Source: Candidatus Poribacteria bacterium
GTDB taxonomy: Bacteria; Poribacteria; WGA-4E; WGA-3G
Length of the DNA stretch: 64,000 bases
NCBI GenBank assembly: GCA_965217715.1
Contig: OZ244563.1
Location: 3,493,083-3,557,082 of the forward strand
Reading direction: 5' to 3'
Shown here: positions 8,781 through 56,271 of the stretch, piece after piece
Layout of the letters: every line of letters starts with the position of its first letter
Position numbering within the stretch: the first letter of the stretch is position 1
Position numbers and translations under genes: made by a program
The notes under the pieces: generated by a model
What the model saw: only the letters and a program-made list of their open reading frames with translations
What the model was told of the DNA's origin: nothing
Database searches by the model: none

Positions 8781-10337
8781 ATGGCAAACGAAGATTTTAC
8801 CTCTAAAGTACCGCACTATACCTTCGCGGAAACGTTGGAAGAACAGGAAGAACAGTTAAAAACCAATCCGTTAATGCAACGGTTGAACGCTTATCGTAAA
8901 ACTTACAAAGACGACCCGCACCGTCCGATCTACCATTACATCAATCCAGAAGCAATGCTCAATGACCCGAATGGACTCTGTTTCTGGCAGGGACGGTGGC
9001 ATCTTTTCTATCAGGCATATCCACCAGAAGATACACGTCAGCACTGGGGACACGCCGTTAGTGATGACCTCATCCATTGGCGTGATCTACCCTACGCAAT
9101 ATATCCGAACCCGGAACGCTGCTGTTTCTCCGGTTCAACTTTCGTGGAAGAAGACCGCGTGATAGCGATGTATCACGGCACAGTTGTCGGCAACATGGTG
9201 GCGGTATCAAGCGACCCGCTCCTTCTGAATTGGGAGAAGGTCTCCGGCAAGGCAGTCATCCCATCAAGACATGCAGACGGCACAACACCTATCTACCGTG
9301 TTTTTGATCCGTGCATCTGGGAAAAAGACGACATGTATTACTCGCTATCGGGCGGAACGTTACCGCATGGCCCTGGTGGTAAACCTGTTCGCGCCAATTT
9401 CTTACTCCGCTCGGCAGACTTAGCGAACTGGGTCTATTTGCACCCCTTCGTTGAAGATGATCAATACACGTTGGTCGGCGATGATGGCGCATGTCCCTAT
9501 TTCTGGCCCATAGGTGACCGACACATCCTCCTATTTTTCAGTCACATGAGTGGTGGACAGTATCTGCTCGGTGATTACGACAAAGCACGTGATAAGTTTG
9601 TCGTGACAGCAGGGGCAAAAAACAATTTTGGCGTAGCATCTCCCGCTGGTGTTCATGCGCCGTCTGCGGTTCCTGATGGTGAGGGTGGTGTCATCGTAAT
9701 CTACAACATGAATCCAGCAAAACCTACCAAGGGTTGGAACCAGATTATGACGTTACCGCGCCGTCTAACGCTTCTCTCTAAAGATGAAATCGGTGTTGAA
9801 CCTGCAGGTGATATTGAATCATTGCGGTCCGACCATCAGCATGTCAATGCGACAACACTCCCCGCAAACGAGGAAGTTGTGTTAGAGAACATTAAGGGCA
9901 ATGCGATGGAACTTGAACTCGAAATTGACACCAAAGGCTCCCCGATGGTTGAGTTGAACGTGCTTCGTTCGCCGCAGAAAGAGGAATTCACCCGAATCGC
10001 TTTCTTCAGAGAACGCGGTATGCGTAATCACAATTCGGACAGAAATGTACGTGAAAGCCTGCTAACGATAGATTCATCGTATTCGTCAATTGCGCCAGAT
10101 GTGCGTTCACGAGCACCCGAAACTGGTGGGTTGTCAATTTTGGGGGACGAAACGCTCAAACTACGCGTATTTGTTGACAAGAGTGTCGTAGAAGTGTTCG
10201 CCAATGGACGGCAATGTGTTGCTATGCGCGTCTATCCCGACAGGGAAGATAGTGTTGGTGTGTCTTTGCGTTCTCAAGGGCAAGACAGTGAACTCAAATC
10301 ACTGGATGCTTGGCAGATGAAGAATATCTATGCTTAA
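8781..10337 (+). CDS. Glycoside hydrolase family 32-like (beta-fructofuranosidase/levanase fold)
   Basis: YHYINPEAMLNDPNGLCFWQGRWHLFYQ (NDPNG nucleophile block), WGHAVSDDLIHW and FSGS blocks. The RDP-like (VFDP) and EC-like (ACPY) blocks look non-canonical. Confidence 0.7.
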   Translation: MANEDFTSKVPHYTFAETLEEQEEQLKTNPLMQRLNAYRKTYKDDPHRPIYHYINPEAMLNDPNGLCFWQGRWHLFYQAYPPEDTRQHWGHAVSDDLIHWRDLPYAIYPNPERCCFSGSTFVEEDRVIAMYHGTVVGNMVAVSSDPLLLNWEKVSGKAVIPSRHADGTTPIYRVFDPCIWEKDDMYYSLSGGTLPHGPGGKPVRANFLLRSADLANWVYLHPFVEDDQYTLVGDDGACPYFWPIGDRHILLFFSHMSGGQYLLGDYDKARDKFVVTAGAKNNFGVASPAGVHAPSAVPDGEGGVIVIYNMNPAKPTKGWNQIMTLPRRLTLLSKDEIGVEPAGDIESLRSDHQHVNATTLPANEEVVLENIKGNAMELELEIDTKGSPMVELNVLRSPQKEEFTRIAFFRERGMRNHNSDRNVRESLLTIDSSYSSIAPDVRSRAPETGGLSILGDETLKLRVFVDKSVVEVFANGRQCVAMRVYPDREDSVGVSLRSQGQDSELKSLDAWQMKNIYA

Positions 10338-10637
10338 AAAGTTACGGTTCTTCGTATCCTACGTGCTATAAACATCTCGCCTTTACAAGAAGGAAGACTA
10401 TAGGATTCGAAGAACCGTGATCTGAACAAACCGTGGGGAATGTTGATATGGCAGAAAAGGGGATAAATAACAGGAAAAATCCTATTTTGCAGTCGGTGGT
10501 GCAGCAAAGATCGTCTCAATGGACGTGTGGCAAATGCGCTCTATTTGGGAAGAATTGAAATATCGGGAAGGGGAGTAGGAAGATAAATAAGATCAACAAT
10601 TTCATGATAATTTTAAAACATAAAGGAGTAAGAAGCC

Positions 10638-11789
10638 ATGAAACGTCTCACACTAACATCGCTGGGACAAATCCGTGAAGCCGATATTGTCTTTGGAGAT
10701 CTGACAGTGTTTGTCGGTGAACAAGCGAGTGGAAAGAGCATTCTACTCCAACTTGTAAAGTTAATTTCAGACGCAGGCGATACTACGCAAACTCTCAAAA
10801 AACACGGTTTTGATTGGCAGAAAAAAGTTGAGAATTTTTTATCTCTTTATTTTGGTGAAGGGATGGGGACGATTTGGAACAAGGATGAGACGAAAGTCAC
10901 CGTTGATAAGGTAGATTTTACGCCTCGAAAAGCGTTATTAAAGAGAAAGAAAGATGAGAGTCTTTTTCTGATACCGGCACACCGTGTTGTAACATTAAAA
11001 GATGGATGGCCACGTGCTTTTACCGACTATGGCACGAGCGATCCGTACGTCGTTAAGGAGTTCAGCGAACAATTGCGCCTATTGATGGAAGCGGGTTTTG
11101 GTTCAGGTGAAAGCCCTATATTTCCTCATGCAGGTCGTATGAATAAAACAATACGAGATGCAATCGGGAAAAGTATCTTTGGGGAGGCTGAGTTGAGATT
11201 GGATAGATCCGGGCTGCGTAAACGGATTGTATTAGATGTTGCGGGTGCTCAACTACCATTTATGGTGTGGTCTACAGGTCAGAGAGAATTCGCTCCTCTT
11301 TTACTGGGACTGTACAGGTTAATGCCTTCAGGAAGAGCGCAAAAGAAAAATAACATCAACTGGGTTGTTATTGAAGAACCGGAAATGGGGTTGCATCCCA
11401 AAGCGATCTCAGCACTTCTCCTCATATTTTTAGAGTTATTAAGACGAGGTTACAAAGTCATTGTTTCGACCCATTCATCGCAAATTTTAGAACTTATCTG
11501 GGCTATTCAACTCATTGCTAAATCAAAAAATGCACCAGCAAGGTTAAGACAGTTGCTGGATTTGAAACCGAATAGCTTTTCCTATGACCTTACAGAGACA
11601 GTCATGCACAAAAAAACGTTCAAAACCTATTATTTCTCTCGTGAAGACAGTGTTGTAAATGTCAAAAATATCTCAACATTAGATGCGGAGGACATGGATG
11701 TTGAAGTATCGGATTGGGGAGGGTTAACAGCATTCAGTACTAAAGTTTCTGAAGTCGTCTCTGAAGCTATGTGGAGGACAGACGTGTGA
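10638..11789 (+). CDS. AAA_21/AAA_15-type ABC ATPase (OLD/Septu/PARIS-like defense ATPase family)
   Basis: Walker A GEQASGKS. Mid-protein VIEEPEMGLHP (ABC signature/D-loop analog typical of AAA_21). H-loop VSTHSSQIL. Confidence 0.75.
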   Translation: MKRLTLTSLGQIREADIVFGDLTVFVGEQASGKSILLQLVKLISDAGDTTQTLKKHGFDWQKKVENFLSLYFGEGMGTIWNKDETKVTVDKVDFTPRKALLKRKKDESLFLIPAHRVVTLKDGWPRAFTDYGTSDPYVVKEFSEQLRLLMEAGFGSGESPIFPHAGRMNKTIRDAIGKSIFGEAELRLDRSGLRKRIVLDVAGAQLPFMVWSTGQREFAPLLLGLYRLMPSGRAQKKNNINWVVIEEPEMGLHPKAISALLLIFLELLRRGYKVIVSTHSSQILELIWAIQLIAKSKNAPARLRQLLDLKPNSFSYDLTETVMHKKTFKTYYFSREDSVVNVKNISTLDAEDMDVEVSDWGGLTAFSTKVSEVVSEAMWRTDV

Positions 11790-23118: not shown

Positions 23119-23245
23119 TACCTCTACTTTTCTATTTGTTATAGGAACAAAACTTTGTACAATTTAGTGTTCTTATATGGTATTGGTTTATAGAAACCTT
23201 TTGACATTAACATTAGATTTTCATACACTTGTCACCCCGCTGGGG

Positions 23246-23384
23246 TTTATAGTGAAATCTAAAAATATGTTCACACTCCCTGGTAGATGCGGTTTCCTAA
23301 CCGCATCTATGGAGTGAATAAACACGGTTCGGTTAGGAAACCGAACCTACCGTAGTGTAAAAATAATTATGGGTTTTACTATAA
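23246..23384. repeat. Composite ~140-nt intergenic repeat (A/T-rich arms flanking two GGTTAGGAAACC-type hairpins); copies also at 35338..35447, 35512..35613 and 56097..56235
   Basis: Near-identical strings TTATAGTGAAATCTAAAAATATGTTCACACTCCCTGGTAGATGCGGTTTCCTAACCGCATCTATGGACTGAATAAACACGGTTCGGTTAGGAAACCGAACCTACCGTAGTGTAAAAATAATTATGGGTTTTACTATAA at all four sites. Confidence 0.85.
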
Positions 23385-23933
23385 ATTGGAGAATGGCACA
23401 TTTCTATAAACATTCCGCCCCGCTGGGGCTATACACACTCACAACATACAGATTCATTCGTTAAATTGGCACCTACTGGGACGTGTTAAATGATGCGGTG
23501 AATCAACGTCAAATGCGCTTTTTGGCATTTGGCGGGAAACCGCTATAGGCGTTAATTTAGTTCGAAATCGGGGTTGAAAACCCCTCCTACATTGCTTGAA
23601 AATATTTGTCAACAAAAACACCCATCACTTCGCTCCATAAAGGTTAATTCTTTATGGGGACGAAAGCGACAGGCATCTACTTCCGCGGTACCACCCCGCT
23701 TGACAGATTGTGAAATCTGCCCGCTTCATTTTTTTTTGCTGGCTCCAGGATGAAATTCAGCAGTTGCTCTCAAAACCACGCTTCCAACCGATGGCGCGGT
23801 CTCTCTGATTGAGAGGTCTCAACTTCCTACTGTGTCCCTTCATTGCCTTCTCATAGTGTATTGTTTATCAAATTTTGTGGTTTGGGGTCGCGATTCGGAG
23901 ATCGCTCCTACAAACACCTTCAATCGGTTTAAC

Positions 23934-26732: not shown

Positions 26733-26858
26733 ATAACGTGAGTTTGATAAATCAGATTTTTGGACTCGGTGCGGTTAGGAAACCGCACCTACCGGGCTTA
26801 TGAGAATAAGATTTTATGCAAAATGAAGTTCATATATCTATTATCAAACTCACGTTAT
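26733..26858. repeat. MITE-like element (~126 bp) with AACGTGAGTTTGATAA terminal inverted repeats and an internal hairpin module; further copies at 38211..38335, 38338..38465 (variant), 30622..30768 (variant interior) and a half-copy at 35448..35511
   Basis: Terminal inverted repeat ATAACGTGAGTTTGATAA ... TTATCAAACTCACGTTAT. Interior carries GGTGCGGTTAGGAAACCGCACCTACC. Copies are nearly identical in sequence. Confidence 0.8.
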
Positions 26859-27041
26859 TATATGAAAAGTGTTGCAACACATATAAAGTTGTTTGTCAAG
26901 TATTTTCAAATTATAGTGAAATCCATAATTATTTTTACGTTTTGTTCTTATGTGGATTTCAAACACACTATAAATGTCCGAGGCGCAATGAATTTAAAGA
27001 AGAATGTAAAGGTATTTTTAGATTTTACTATAAAGTAAATC

Positions 27042-30530: not shown

Positions 30531-30747
30531 TTCAGAATAACTACCATAAAAACAAAACAATTCACCTTAATGACAAATTTAGGACTCAACATAAACAATT
30601 TCATGAGGTTGAATAACTTGTAGTAACGTGAGTTTGATAAATCCCGTAGGTTGGGTTGAACCGCAGGTGAAACCCAACATTTAGAGTCTATAAAAGCGTT
30701 TCAAGTTGGGTTTCGTTCCTCAACCCAACCTACATCTACATTTGGAT

Positions 30748-31047
30748 TTAATTATCAAACTCACGTTGTAGTACCTCGCGTAACTGCGGTATCAGGGGAA
30801 GCAGGGCATCTAATCTGTTCCTATAAGCAACAAGCACAACAACTGCAATATCAAAATGGATAAGGTTCTGTTGATATTCAATGTTTCTGTCAGCAGTAAG
30901 CCAGACGTCAAATTCTTTCTCTGCTATGTGGAGCAAGTCCCCATTTTCTATACCGGACCAGCCTTTTTCTTGAACCGTAAAAACAGTATGCCCGCGCAAC
31001 TCTTGTTTGAGTTTTTTAGGTAAGCATTCATCAATCAGAATATGCAT
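30748..31047 (-). CDS. DUF5615 (PIN-like/Mut7-C-like) putative toxin
   Basis: 99 aa, MHILIDECLPKKL ... Overlaps the upstream DUF433 gene by 17 nt. Its last codons lie within a MITE terminal inverted repeat. Confidence 0.55.
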   Translation of the reverse strand: MHILIDECLPKKLKQELRGHTVFTVQEKGWSGIENGDLLHIAEKEFDVWLTADRNIEYQQNLIHFDIAVVVLVAYRNRLDALLPLIPQLREVLQREFDN

Positions 31048-33744: not shown

Positions 33745-34152
33745 CTCATAAATCGGAATTCGTTAGTTCACTACGCTAATTCAAGCCATAAAATACTAAT
33801 GTAAGAGGCGCAATAAATTGCGCGACTACCAACGCGTTCCTGCTTATGGTAAAGATTACAATTAACACTACATTCCTGAACTGTGAATCAACGTCAAATG
33901 CACATAAGGCATTTGTCCAAATCAACGCTGAATGCGCCAAATCAACGGTATGAATGCCTTATGGCATTCCCCGTATGGCATTCAGCGGGAGGGAACTCCG
34001 ATTCCCGACTATCAATGTGTTTCGTCGCGATTCGGAGATCGCTCCTACAGAGGAAATGTAGAATTATTTCTATACTCCACTATAAGTAAACATCTCTTTA
34101 AAAAAAGATCGGGTTTAGAAACCCTCCCACGATTTATGAGATAGATTGTAGT

Positions 34153-35052
34153 TTAGCGCGAGAGACCTAATTCGGTGAGTAATTCTTTAAGTTCAGCTTT
34201 CTCTGTATCATTGAGAGGCAGCAATGGACTTGTTGTGTGTGCCTTACAAACGCCCAAAATCTCTAAACACGCCTTCATACCGCTTACACCTTGTCCGTAG
34301 GTATAGAGTTTGCTGAGCTTGATCATCCATTTCTGGAGTCGGTCAACCTCGTCAATGTCGCGTGCTTTTGCGGCGTTATAGAGTGCGACAGATTCTCTCG
34401 GTGCGACGTTTGCGATAGAAATGACCCCGCCATCAGCACCGAATAGCAACGCTGCCCCTATAATAAAATGCGAACCGATGAAGATGGAGAAATCGTCACG
34501 TTCACCAAGCAGTGCCAAGAGATGGAGGCTATTTATCCAGTCACCGGAGCTATCCTTAATGCCAACGATATTATCACAATCATCTGCCAGTTGCGCGACA
34601 ATATGCGGTTTGATAGCGGTTTTCGCTGTAGACGGAATATTGTAGATTAGCACGGGTAATTCAGTGCTTGCAGCGATTTCCTGATAGAATTGGATTATGT
34701 CTGCGTCATCGGTGGAGGGATAATAGTAACCGGGAGTCGCAGCGACAGCATCAACCTGAAACTGTTGTGCAGTCTCAATGTTTTGTATGACGCGCTGGGT
34801 GCTTGTATCCATCACACAACAGATAATCGGGACGCGTCCTGCAATAGTTTTGGTGGCGATGTCCAACGCACGTTCACGCTCCGCATTTGTTAACGTTGTA
34901 AACTCACCAGAAGAACCCAGCAGATAAATGCCGTGAACGCCATTGTCAATCAGTCTGTTAAGCTGTCTAACAAACCCAAGTTCATCAACGCGTTCTTTTT
35001 CATCAAGTGGTGTAACCGTTGGTGAAAAAATACCTTCATATTGGATGTTCAT
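34153..35052 (-). CDS. DapA-family (dihydrodipicolinate synthase/N-acetylneuraminate lyase family) class I aldolase
   Basis: GVHGIYLLGSSGEFTTLTNAERE ... VPIICCV ... TIM-barrel Schiff-base lyase family. The likely start is MNIQYEG, since the ORF-track start at 35103 adds 17 aa. Confidence 0.75.
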   Translation of the reverse strand: MNIQYEGIFSPTVTPLDEKERVDELGFVRQLNRLIDNGVHGIYLLGSSGEFTTLTNAERERALDIATKTIAGRVPIICCVMDTSTQRVIQNIETAQQFQVDAVAATPGYYYPSTDDADIIQFYQEIAASTELPVLIYNIPSTAKTAIKPHIVAQLADDCDNIVGIKDSSGDWINSLHLLALLGERDDFSIFIGSHFIIGAALLFGADGGVISIANVAPRESVALYNAAKARDIDEVDRLQKWMIKLSKLYTYGQGVSGMKACLEILGVCKAHTTSPLLPLNDTEKAELKELLTELGLSR

Positions 35053-35901
35053 TGTTGCCTCTCTCATGTTTCGCTGAATTGTAGCATAATTGCAGTTTAG
35101 CAAAGCCCAATTTAAATGTCAATACCTTCTAAAAATGGGGCAGAACCATTCAATTGTTGAGTTTACCCAATTAATGGTGATGGGTAAACGGGTGCGTCAA
35201 CATTCCGCCTCTACGAGGCTCAAGAACTTAGGATAACGCTTTTTCTATAAACATTCCGCCTCTACGAGGCTATATACAAATCCTTAAATTCACGCTTAGG
35301 GTGCGGTTAGAAAACGCACCTCGGACATTGTTGGAGGGTTTTATAGTGAAATCTAAAAATATGTTCACACTCCCTGGTAGATGCGGTTTCCTAACCGCAT
35401 CTATGGACTGAATAAACACGGTTCGGTTAGGAAACCGAACCTACCGTAACGTGAGTTTGATAATAGATATATGAACTTCATTTTGCATAAAATCTTATTC
35501 TCATAAGCCCGGTAGGTGCGGTTTCCTAACCGCATCTATGGACTGAATAAACACGGTTCGGTTAGGAAACCGAACCTACCGTAGTGTAAAAATAATTATG
35601 GATTTTACTATAAACGCCGATACATTGATATATAATCGGGGTTGAAAACCCCTCTCACAAGATAATCAGACACTAAATTGACGCTTAGGATGCGGTTGGG
35701 AAACCGCACCTACCAAAGTGTAAAAGTAATTACAGATTCTACTATAATGGTGATGTATTATCCAATTAACTTGACAGTCTTGTTTTGTGGGAGAAAACTC
35801 TGATTCCCGACTATCAAAGCGTTTCGTCGCGATTCGGAGATTGCTCCTACCAGTGATTTCACCACAAAAACTTACACGCCCACCTGAATTAATTCATTGC
35901 C

Positions 35902-37824
35902 TTGATTTCAGCGGTATGGTATGATAGAAACATGCATCAAAACGAACCAAGCGCTATTCAGGACGTTGAGAAACCTTCAACACTCCGTTTTTTTGTTGGT
36001 ACTCTCCTCTTCGGTTCTATCCTCATCATTCTAACCTGTTACTGGATTATCTCCGCAGAAAACCGTGTGGTATGGGAACTCACAGATTTTTCAATCTTTC
36101 CCACTGTGCTTTTCACGTTCTTTCTGCTTGCAGCCCTTTCACCTTTCTTAAGAAGATTATTCAAACATGCTGCGCCAACCTCACGTGAACTGGCGTCGAC
36201 ATATATTATGGTTTCGGTAGCGACAGCACTTGCAGGGCACGACATCGTCCGTCAATTAGTGCCGATGATAGCAAACGCAGGGTGGTTTGCAACACCAGAA
36301 AATGAATGGGCAGACATCTTCTTTCGCTTTTTACCAACGTGGTTGACGATTACCGATCGTAAAATTCTGCGAGGCTATTTTGAAGGAGATGATACCTTTT
36401 GGCAACCCCGCTACATGGAAGCGTGGATGTGGCCAATTATTGCGTGGAGCGTTTTGGTGATTGTACTGATGTTTATGATGTTATGCATCAATATCATCAT
36501 CCGAAAACAGTGGATTGACCATGAAAAGTTGAGTTATCCGCTGACAACGCTTCCAGTTGAACTGCTCGGCAATACGTCGAACCTTTTCCGCAATAAACTA
36601 ATTTGGCTCGGTTTCGGAATTGCGTTTGGTCTTGAGATTTTGGCAGGATTGAATTACCTTTTTCCTGTGATTCCCTCGCTATCAATTAAGTATAGACTCT
36701 TCTTTCCAGATCGTCCTTGGAATGCAATGGGGCGTTTGCCAGTCTATGTTTATCCATTTGCAATCGGGTTAGGTTACCTAATGCCGTTGGATTTAGCACT
36801 ATCTTTCTGGAGTTTTTATTTGTTCTGGGGATTGCAGCGCGTCTTTTTTACTGCGATAGGATGGACAACGGCAATCGGTTTTCAAACAGAACAACGGGCA
36901 GGTGCGTGGATTGGGATAGGATTACTTGCACTGGTAACAAGTCGAAGAGAAATTTTAAAGGTGTTAGGAGGGGTATTCTCTTTTAGATCGAAAGATCGTT
37001 TATATCAACTTGCTGTATTTGGTCTGATATTTGGATTAGGAATTGTATTGATATTTTGGTATTTCGCCGGACTATCGCCTTGGGTTGCGCTCGGATATTT
37101 CGGCATCTATTTGGTGTTGTGCATCGGGATGACCCGCATGCGTGCAGAACTGGGTCCCCCGACACACGAGTTGCATGGAGTTCATCCGGACCGAATTATG
37201 CTATTATTTTTAGGCAGTCGTCCATTAGGCGCGCAAAATTTGACAAACACAACCTTATTATCTTGGCTTGCTTACGGGTATCGGTGTCATCCGATGCCAC
37301 ATCAATTGGAGGCGTTTAAAATCGGCAGACACTTCCGTCTCCGTGAGAATCGGTTGGTTATTGCCTTGATAGTAGCATCAATCGTAGGTGCAATCATTTC
37401 CATTGTTGGGCATGTGGCACTCTATTACGAATTTCGGTTTGCACGCTGGGGAGTCGGTGAGTTTAACCGCCTGCAAAACTGGATTACCGCGCCGCGCGCG
37501 CCGAACCTCCCTGCTATTCAACACATGGGGTTTGGCTTCCTTTTAACCGGTATTTTGACGATTCTCAAACGGCAGTTTTTGTGGTGGCCGTTTTATCCAG
37601 TCGGATATGCCGTAGGAAACGGTTGGGCAATCGGATGGATGTGGTTTTCAATTTTTTTAGGATGGCTCTTTAAAAGACTACTTTTTACAGGGGGCGGTGT
37701 GCGTGCTTACCGCAGAGCGTTACCGTTATTCTTAGGACTTATCTTTGGTCAGTTCCTTGCAGGAAGCCTGTGGAGTTTGTTAGGCGTGCTGTTTAACAAG
37801 AACATGTACACCCTGTTTCCATGA
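35902..37824 (+). CDS. Large polytopic membrane protein of unknown function (paralog 1)
   Basis: 640 aa with at least 12 predicted TM segments. Conserved blocks RKQWIDHEKLSYPLTTLPVEL ... shared with 53937..55904. Confidence 0.55.
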   Translation: MISAVWYDRNMHQNEPSAIQDVEKPSTLRFFVGTLLFGSILIILTCYWIISAENRVVWELTDFSIFPTVLFTFFLLAALSPFLRRLFKHAAPTSRELASTYIMVSVATALAGHDIVRQLVPMIANAGWFATPENEWADIFFRFLPTWLTITDRKILRGYFEGDDTFWQPRYMEAWMWPIIAWSVLVIVLMFMMLCINIIIRKQWIDHEKLSYPLTTLPVELLGNTSNLFRNKLIWLGFGIAFGLEILAGLNYLFPVIPSLSIKYRLFFPDRPWNAMGRLPVYVYPFAIGLGYLMPLDLALSFWSFYLFWGLQRVFFTAIGWTTAIGFQTEQRAGAWIGIGLLALVTSRREILKVLGGVFSFRSKDRLYQLAVFGLIFGLGIVLIFWYFAGLSPWVALGYFGIYLVLCIGMTRMRAELGPPTHELHGVHPDRIMLLFLGSRPLGAQNLTNTTLLSWLAYGYRCHPMPHQLEAFKIGRHFRLRENRLVIALIVASIVGAIISIVGHVALYYEFRFARWGVGEFNRLQNWITAPRAPNLPAIQHMGFGFLLTGILTILKRQFLWWPFYPVGYAVGNGWAIGWMWFSIFLGWLFKRLLFTGGGVRAYRRALPLFLGLIFGQFLAGSLWSLLGVLFNKNMYTLFP

Positions 37825-38173: not shown

Positions 38174-38474
38174 ATTTTCCTCCTAAGGATTAAAATCCTA
38201 AATACGTAAAATAACGTGAGTTTGATAAATCAGATTTTTGGACTCGGTGCGGTTAGGAAACCGCACCTACCGGGCTTATGAGAATAAGATTTTATGCAAA
38301 ATGAAGTTCATATATCTATTATCAAACTCACGTTAAAATAACGTGAGCTAGACATAAGTAATTTTGGAAATCGGTGCGGTTAGGAAACCGCACCTACCAC
38401 GGTTATATGTGTGAAATACTAAACATTAAGAGCTTCATAACTCTTAGACCGAGCTCACGTTAAAAATAGAATCA

Positions 38475-47668: not shown

Positions 47669-48005
47669 AGGTGAGTTGTCCTTTAGGATTTACATTTCAG
47701 ATTTAATGTGTTCAAATCTCCTTTACCTAAAGCTTGAACAGTTTTTGGAATGTCTAAGTTGCTACGATAATAACGGATTCTGACGAATAAGTCAAGTGAA
47801 ATCCGTCTCACCGTATAAAATCGGGGTTGAAAACCCCTCCAACAATAAGAAATATCCTTAATCCGTCCGTAGTCTTTTTTAGTAACGAAAACTACAAAAT
47901 TTCCGTTTTATATCATGCTTTAAATCCTAAAGAAAAATCAAATTTCCGCATATTATAGGGGAGTTTGCGGACTACATCATTGTAAGTAGGAAGAGGAGTA
48001 AATTC

Positions 48006-55904: not shown

Positions 55905-56271
55905 TCTAATTGTCTGAACCAGGATTTACAAGATTTTCAGGATTGAAGATGTTCACATGTAGTGTTCGGAGCGTTTACAAAGCCTCCTAAAGTTTTAACA
56001 GTAAAGTCGCGACCAGGAGGTCGCTCCTACAGGAAAAAAAGAGGCGCAATGAATTGCGCTACTACAAACACTGCAAATCTTAAGGAAATATAAGAATTTT
56101 ATAGTGAAATCTAAAAATATGTTCACACTCCCTGGTAGATGCGGTTTCCTAACCGCATTTATGGACTGAATAAACACGGTTCGGTTAGGAAACCGAACCT
56201 ACCGTAGTGTAAAAATAATTATGGGTTTTACTATAACTGTAATATAAGTTCCATTACATAGGAATCGTATC

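Follow-up and report, generated by a model that had tools for sequence, protein, structure and literature searches.

REP sequences are reportedly rearrangement join points, as described by Shyamala in 1990, and Elhai et al. are said to have found, in 2008, small dispersed repeats nested in minitransposons of Nostoc. The nested Nostoc repeats are mentioned by Bertels and Rainey (2011, PMC3116915), whose paper, along with those of Nunvar (2010, PMC2817692) and Di Nocera (2013, PMC3733652), covers GTAG REPs, RAYTs and REPINs; in Anabaena variabilis, REP dimers lie inside long TATAG-ended palindromes (Di Nocera, PMC3733652). REPs have been described both as insertion targets and as rearrangement join points (Tobes and Pareja 2006, PMC1525189; PMC3184786; Slack 2006, PMC1428787), and the REPs found at rearrangement junctions provide homology shorter than the REP itself (PMC1428787).

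Here we analyze an intergenic region in a 64-kb stretch of DNA from Candidatus Poribacteria (hereafter the window), in which half of one MITE is fused into another repeat element. Every component of this chimera is of a known kind, i.e. a GTAG REP/REPIN with its RAYT, an IS630-derived MITE and an IS982-derived MITE; the novelty lies in the lineage, in the REP family itself and in how widely REPs serve as cores of MITE frames that come from different transposons. A preliminary description of the region had outlined a three-part arrangement, in which a composite hairpin element breaks off, is followed by the reverse complement of the right half of a MITE and resumes in its second hairpin pair. 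Self-BLAST and multiple alignment reproduce this arrangement to within one base; the 'hairpin module' and the 'composite element' had gone unrecognised as a GTAG-type REP and an IS630-derived MITE.

The repeat-filled spacer and its flanking genes

All homologues of the two flanking genes that bear a name come from Poribacteria, the best matches being 97% identical, which identifies the source as Candidatus Poribacteria and rules out a cyanobacterial origin with Nezha-like MITEs. Exact-protein look-ups returned no identical record for either flanking protein. The two genes are those previously named, a DHDPS-family (dapA-like) gene and a DUF6785/DUF6784 membrane-protein gene (Table 1). No RAYT, IS982 or IS630 transposase gene is encoded in the 64-kb window, so that the links to enzymes made below rest on other Poribacteria genomes. 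An Rfam scan of the region found no family, only sub-threshold miRNA noise.

Recognisable repeats span approximately positions 35195 to 35850, between two divergent promoters. The characterization of the region as 800 bp of repeats only is slightly too broad: positions 35053 to 35170 are conserved dapA upstream sequence, which aligns with L001, L002 and L003, and positions 35897 to 35925 are promoter-like. The spacer is probably best read as an accumulation of small mobile repeats lying between these two promoters.

In relatives at 87–97% protein identity, dapA and the DUF6785 gene each have different upstream neighbours, with spacers of <10 bp (L002), 48 bp (L003), 175 bp (L122) and 593 bp (L123), and the L001 contig stops 117 bp upstream of dapA. 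The repeat-filled spacer (35053–35931) coincides with a gene-order change between lineages. Among the closest relatives, neither an ancestral nor an intermediate allele (the host element with a full MITE, or an uninserted site at the locus) was found; because no parental allele is at hand and the flanking genes are differently placed in relatives, we infer the order of events.

Table 1 Features of the spacer and its flanking genes (window positions; the last column gives the basis of the assignment or further copies).
Feature	Position	Strand	Basis or remark
DHDPS-family (dapA-like) gene	34153–35052	-	flanks the repeat-filled spacer
Promoter-like site of the dapA-like gene, TTGACA-17-TAAACT	35094–35122	-	promoter scan; non-repeat, in stretch conserved in relatives
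Small hairpin repeat, core AACATTCCGCCTCTACGAGGCT, two copies (35199–35220 and 35250–35271)	35195–35280	+	self-comparison
TAAATTSACGC leader, then degenerate REP (GGTGCGGTTAGAAAACGCACCTCGG)	35285–35330	+	family D3
Left terminal inverted repeat of the 141-bp element (IS630-type), TA before	35341–35375	+	99% identical to two copies; L122 end alignment
REP H1: GGTAG head, stem ATGCGG/CCGCAT, loop TTTCCTAA	35376–35401	+	
REP H2, stem GTTCGG/CCGAAC, inverted relative to H1	35420–35445	-	inverted repeat I6
Junction 1, putative insertion site TACCGTA of the IS982-type MITE in the host element	35442–35448	.	alignment; native host sequence CCTACCGTAGTG
Right half of the IS982-derived MITE, intact terminal repeat AACGTGAGTTTGATAA	35448–35510	-	100% identical to two full copies
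Hybrid REP (junction 2): left arm GTGCGG MITE-type, right arm CCGCAT H1-type	35511–35536	+	alignment
Crossover interval, 18 bases identical in both parents	35517–35534	.	diagnostic bases 35516 and 35535
REP H2, second copy	35555–35580	-	
Right terminal inverted repeat of the 141-bp element (IS630-type), TA after	35582–35613	+	
Small hairpin repeat CGGGGTTGAAAACCCC	35629–35654	+	copies at 47814, 23566
TAAATTGACGC leader, then REP, then IS630-type right arm	35674–35747	+	families D1, D3
Different GTAG-type hairpin repeat GTCGCGATTCGGAGATTGCTCCTAC	35796–35850	+	copies at 33994, 16865, 5042
Promoter-like site of the DUF6785 gene, TTGCCT-17-TATGAT	35897–35925	+	promoter scan
DUF6785/DUF6784 membrane-protein gene	35932–37824	+	flanks the repeat-filled spacer

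Several of the smaller repeats in the spacer are shared with other loci. The second of the AACATTCCGCCTCTACGAGGCT-core copies has a TTTCTATAAACAT leader that is also present at position 23401 of the window, and the unit of leader plus hairpin occurs in the Poribacteria loci L022, L033 and L042. The TAAATTSACGC leader plus REP unit is common in other Poribacteria (L020, L022, L030, L042, L043, L107). The segment at 35674–35747 is a second cross-family hybrid joined at a REP, and its combination of leader, REP and IS630-type arm recurs in L109 and L112.

The shared hairpin and the two MITE families

When we searched the window for stem-loops preceded by GTAG, many hairpins of one design came up, in which GGTAG leads into a 6-bp stem with the loop TTTCCTAA and the matching second strand of the stem. 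When the REP core CGGTTAGGAAACCGMAYCTACC was scanned against 185,579 species genomes, at least 109 genome stretches contained it and, among those listed, all were from Poribacteria. Across the listed loci and the window, the stems covary (GTGCGG/CCGCAC, 75; GTTCGG/CCGAAC, 51; GCGAGG/CCTCGC, 16; and, more rarely, ATGCGG/CCGCAT, 9, and GCACGG/CCGTGC, 5), with the loop remaining fixed while the stems vary in a compensated manner; the GGTAG head is found in 70 of the 75 copies of the commonest stem variant and in 50 of the 51 copies of the next. In the window, the 13 copies of the hairpin are all located between ORFs.

A 157-aa gene in another Poribacteria locus (L037:2012–2485) reaches 128 bits, above the cut-off of 80, with the NCBIfam model NF047646 (REP-associated tyrosine transposase) and also matches Pfam Y1_Tnp; it was found by phmmer and confirmed with Pfam and NCBIfam, and a regular-expression screen for HUH/Y motifs failed to pick it up. 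This gene has GGTGCGGTTAGGAAACCGCACCTACC upstream and an array of the inverted form downstream, with at least six tandem REP copies on its 3′ side (L037:2470–2700), and its TAA stop codon sits in the TTTCCTAA loop of the first downstream REP. A RAYT homologue in L119 is likewise flanked, by the GCGAGG variant of the REP. The RAYT family comprises 91 homologue clusters, the named ones all from Poribacteria, and the flanking of RAYT by inverted same-class REPs was seen in related genomes only (L037, L119). Because the head, the covarying stem, the loop and the inverted copies flanking RAYT are defining features, the hairpin is a GTAG-type REP, the kind associated with RAYT (Y1/HUH) transposases. 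In the spacer, H1, a 20-nt spacer and H2 form an inverted REP doublet with the GTAG heads pointing outward, i.e. a REPIN-like doublet, and an intact copy of the 141-bp element folds as one long hairpin (z = −6.2). We found no paper on REPs in Poribacteria in the searchable literature.

A second, IS200-like family of Y1 transposases is present as well, in three of the loci selected by the REP (L007:5636–6119, L071:447–936, L037:7019–7498; 72 bits against NF033573, cut-off 55), and its genes in L007 and L071 lie within a few hundred bases of a REP match. Further classes of GTAG hairpins occur between ORFs of the window (16993, 18291, 19224, 22013 and 53761; 17030, 19125, 33829 and 56065; 58090/58116), among them the GCGAGG-stem variant of the same REP, GTAG-TCGCGCAATTCATTGCGC and a head-to-head pair with the stem GCGCG.

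The composite element itself, 141 bp in length, is a MITE frame of IS630 origin that encloses two REPs in inverted orientation (a REPIN). Alignment pairs both of its arms with the termini of an L122 element of the IS630 family (9956–10871, with HTH_Tnp_IS630 and DDE_3 genes, both degraded), and the copies of the composite element in the window have TTATAGT ends with TA on both sides. The L122 element was noticed outside a search of REP loci for a full-length element with TATAGT ends, which found none. We found no empty site orthologous to any of the three 141-bp elements in the window. At 26909–26975, the window contains a 66-bp palindromic element with TTATAGTG ends and without a REP core, adjoined by a solitary IS630-type arm at 27013–27035; it is the sole candidate 'empty frame' seen.

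The AACGTGAG-ended MITE carries one REP and derives from an IS982-family element, because its terminal repeat also ends an IS982-family transposase gene in L009, where AACGTGAGTTTGATAAAT precedes a transposase that matches NF033520 with 185 bits (cut-off 130). Full copies of the MITE at 26735, 30625 and 38213 are flanked by the direct duplications ATTAT, GTAGT and AAAAT, respectively, which read as 7 bp, T-N5-A, if the terminal A/T is counted as target. The full copies thus have a two-ended structure with a target duplication; the copy in the chimera has one end only and is a truncated half rather than a complete MITE. One and the same frame can enclose different REP families from copy to copy; frame and core vary independently.

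Several further arrangements of this family were observed. At 38213–38462 of the window, two IS982-type MITEs, one standard and one variant with AACGTGAGCTAGAC ends, stand back to back, sharing the flank AAAAT and each carrying the same REP; L123 (8243–8287) has an empty site that matches this pair, and L122 has, at the same spot, a different REP-bearing insertion with a direct duplication of approximately 17 bp. The flanking duplications of the full copies and the empty site in L123 are evidence that the MITE is mobile. At 30625–30767, the frame with IS982-type ends has another core, two inverted copies of another GTAG hairpin (stem GTTGGGTT), a variant also present in another species (L018:2643–2796). 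The metagenome contigs L113 and L118 (LXNJ01002458 and LXNJ01005401) contain full MITEs whose right half and REP match the window subfamily exactly, so that a close relative of the source organism is present in that metagenome data set.

Two junctions and the origin of the chimera

Self-BLAST of the window resolves the chimera into three segments. The first (35339–35448), 99.1% identical to 56097–56206 and 23246–23354, is the left 110 bases of the 141-bp element, the other copies of which lie at 23244–23384 and 56096–56236. The second (35447–35534), 100% identical to the reverse complement of 26770–26857 and 38248–38335, is the right 88 bases of the 122-bp MITE (full copies at 26735–26856 and 38213–38334); the other half of the MITE and its second terminal repeat are absent. 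The third (35511–35613), 97% identical to 56134–56236 and 23282–23385, is the right 103 bases of the 141-bp element. The identities of the second and third segments overlap solely in the 24-bp hairpin GGTAGGTGCGGTTTCCTAACCGCA (35511–35534), and the 73-bp block at 35376–35448 is repeated at 35511–35583 with a single difference, A versus G at 35381/35516. The multiple alignment gives the same layout, base by base. The segment matches are not due to chance: in the window, the 16-nt MITE end occurs 7 times (0.03 expected), the 24-nt hairpin 13 times with at most 3 mismatches (0 expected) and the 30-nt right arm 4 times (0 expected).

The two junctions differ in kind. At junction 1 (35447/35448), an intact IS982-type MITE terminus abuts TACCGTA, the point from which intact host copies continue with CCTACCGTAGTG; because the terminus is exact and intact, this junction appears to be a transposase-made end, i.e. 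an ordinary transposition junction and not the result of hairpin recombination. At junction 2, the G at position 35516 is the base of the MITE, in contrast to the A that H1 carries at 35381, and the T at position 35535 is the base of H1 of the composite element, in contrast to the C of the MITE. These diagnostic bases bound the interval, so that the exchange lies within the 18 bases between them, and the resulting hybrid REP has one arm from each parent, with a G:T mismatch at the base of the stem. Only junction 2 falls in the hairpin; the proposal that the junction lies at the shared hairpin is therefore upheld for this one and fails for junction 1, with its intact MITE terminus.

We consider it probable that the chimera arose in two steps, by insertion of the MITE followed by a homology-driven exchange between REPs. 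In the first step, suggested by the intact terminus, the IS982-type MITE would have transposed into TACCGTA, immediately 3′ of the host REP H2. In the second, the position of which is given by the diagnostic bases, a homology-driven event would have joined the REP of the MITE to H1 of a host-type element lacking the MITE, the two REPs being co-oriented. The partner may have been an uninserted sister or allele (unequal exchange), a neighbouring copy (deletion) or an ectopic copy serving as repair template, in which case copying would have been followed by re-annealing in the right arm. Such an exchange would have removed the other half of the MITE, left two REP pairs and made the hybrid hairpin, and it would yield the observed order: left arm, H1, spacer, H2, half MITE, hybrid REP, spacer, H2, right arm. 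The sequence would fit RecA-type recombination and a replication template switch at the hairpin alike and cannot tell the two apart; of the earlier suggestion of recombination or template switching, what stands is an exchange inside the shared hairpin at junction 2. The event is recent, given that the MITE half shows 100% identity with the full copies and that the 73-bp duplicate differs only at the diagnostic base.

Two other origins were rejected. Simple tandem duplication by backward slippage on the inserted allele predicts that the second REP pair is followed by another full MITE. Had an excised MITE circle integrated, both halves of the MITE would still be there and no sequence would be duplicated.

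The chimera retains both IS630-type ends and might, in principle, still move as a unit. That it was formed elsewhere and arrived as a ready-made 276-bp composite through an IS630-type transposase, as a member of a young family, would agree with the intact IS630-type arms, the TA on each side and the folding of the chimera, in which the left arm still pairs with the right one. We regard such an arrival as unlikely, however: the window contains no second copy, the exact junction 1 is absent from the genome loci among the matches listed (at least 109) as well as from the metagenome collection, and the same REP-to-REP event would still be required once. The chimera, which the preliminary description had expected to be sought in other contigs or strains, was accordingly found nowhere else among these loci and metagenomes. 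A second metagenome scan, with the MITE end, returned full copies only, including L113 and L118.

The enzymatic cleavage sites published for Y1 transposases reportedly lie outside the hairpin. This speaks against the somewhat less probable, and on the whole doubtful, alternative that junction 2 was made by a RAYT (Y1), which would have cut and rejoined single-stranded DNA site-specifically where two REP hairpins have their foot. In its favour, the hairpin truly belongs to the RAYT-type REPs, and the data allow the exchange point to be placed at the 3′ foot of the hairpin (...CCGCA|T). However, position 35516, beside the GTAG head, comes from the MITE parent, so that the exchange was not on the GTAG side; the perfect identity over 18 bp is what a homology-driven exchange predicts; and the window has no RAYT gene.

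An assembly artefact, i.e. a false join or duplication at the 24-bp hairpin common to both families, is very improbable, for although repeats break the short-read assemblies of relatives (as in the L001 contig, which ends close to dapA) and many RAYT contigs are just 600–800 bp long, the window crosses three 99%-identical copies of the 141-bp element and several 100%-identical 122-bp copies, which suggests long reads, a spurious join at a 24-bp repeat would not account for the exact transposon terminus at TACCGTA, and analogous half-copies are present in independent assemblies.

On the two-step origin, the chimera is a routine by-product of repeat recombination; its value is that of a clean, datable example, because no mutation has accumulated since it formed and the crossover can be placed within 18 bp.

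Half-copies in other Poribacteria and comparison with known systems

We listed all occurrences of the MITE terminal repeat in the fetched loci, which comprise two full-length IS ends (L009, L015), about nine full MITEs (including the metagenome copies L113, L115 and L118) and five half-copies (the window, L013, L018, L065 and L093). Half-copies thus make up about one third of the MITE copies in this sample, in which loci were chosen for containing the REP and MITE copies truncated elsewhere, without a REP, would be under-sampled. All five half-copies lose homology at the REP or a few bases from it, and their partners are the IS630-type element (window), a TAAATTGAYGC-leader unit (L013), a third frame family (L018, L065) and an unclassified sequence (L093). 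Because the four further half-copies, each from another Poribacteria genome, end at or next to the REP, the formation of half-copies at the REP is recurrent, not rare. The expectation that the breakpoints of other copies would lie at the hairpin is borne out by these truncated MITEs, and the notion that the locus gives a rare view of how repeat families are generated has to be given up.

An analogous REP-to-REP deletion, of an outer interrupted REP with an inner one, was found in L042. Clustering of the flanks of 140 REP occurrences yielded matched arm pairs for several families, together with cross-combinations at the REP. A pattern search of approximately 0.9 Mb of Poribacteria loci detected no core-less frames.

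A third MITE-like family, ATGAAGATTAAG...CTTCAT, with a REP core, was observed in L044 (approximately 130–320) and also in L036, L038, L098, L099 and L108. It sits precisely in the loop of another REP or palindrome, e.g. GGTGCGGTTAG|element|GAAACCGCACCTACC, with no target duplication; the arrangement is, in effect, a REP inside a MITE inside a REP.

MITEs of several transposon families have these REP hairpins as their cores, and the hairpins mark sites of changed gene order. Frames and cores are combined in many ways. Tentatively, the REP hairpin could be a portable core that is common to MITE frames of unrelated transposase families (IS630, IS982 and at least two others) and that doubles as a favoured landing site or cargo and as homology for swaps of arms. 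RAYT-driven insertion might, on such a scheme, prefer the single-stranded tips of extruded palindromes. If the hairpin is indeed such a core, the chimera in the window would be one caught instance of a general route to new MITE families.

Poribacteria carry a phylum-wide, previously undescribed REP/RAYT system, which may be of interest to researchers of mobile DNA and of sponge symbionts. The repeats explain the fragmentation of short-read assemblies of Poribacteria and could serve as strain markers.

Compared with the described GTAG-REP/REPIN-RAYT systems, the Poribacteria repeats show the same GTAG-headed extragenic palindrome, covarying stems, inverted pairs that form one hairpin and, on both sides of RAYT genes, inverted REPs that belong to one class. 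They differ in being a family specific to Poribacteria with a fixed 8-nt TTTCCTAA loop, absent from searchable papers, and in that many copies sit as cores of MITE frames rather than free-standing, in a window that is itself without the RAYT gene. Like MITEs derived from IS982 and IS630, the two frames are non-coding, 120–145 bp long and bounded by the terminal inverted repeats of a full-length element, with target duplications of 5 or 7 bp (IS982 type) or TA (IS630 type) and, in a relative, an empty site. In contrast to the known MITEs of these families, their interior is a REP or a REP pair and not a leftover of the parent element, and the copy in the chimera is one-ended. As in REP-associated rearrangements, a dispersed hairpin gives the short homology at a duplication or deletion junction, and a mobile element has inserted beside a REP; here, however, two transposon families rather than two chromosomal sites were joined, and a recognisable hybrid hairpin was left. 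The likeness to Nostoc lies in tiny hairpin repeats that occur inside MITEs and inside one another and make up mosaic intergenic regions, whereas the phylum and the sequences differ, and the Poribacteria hairpin is tied to a RAYT gene.
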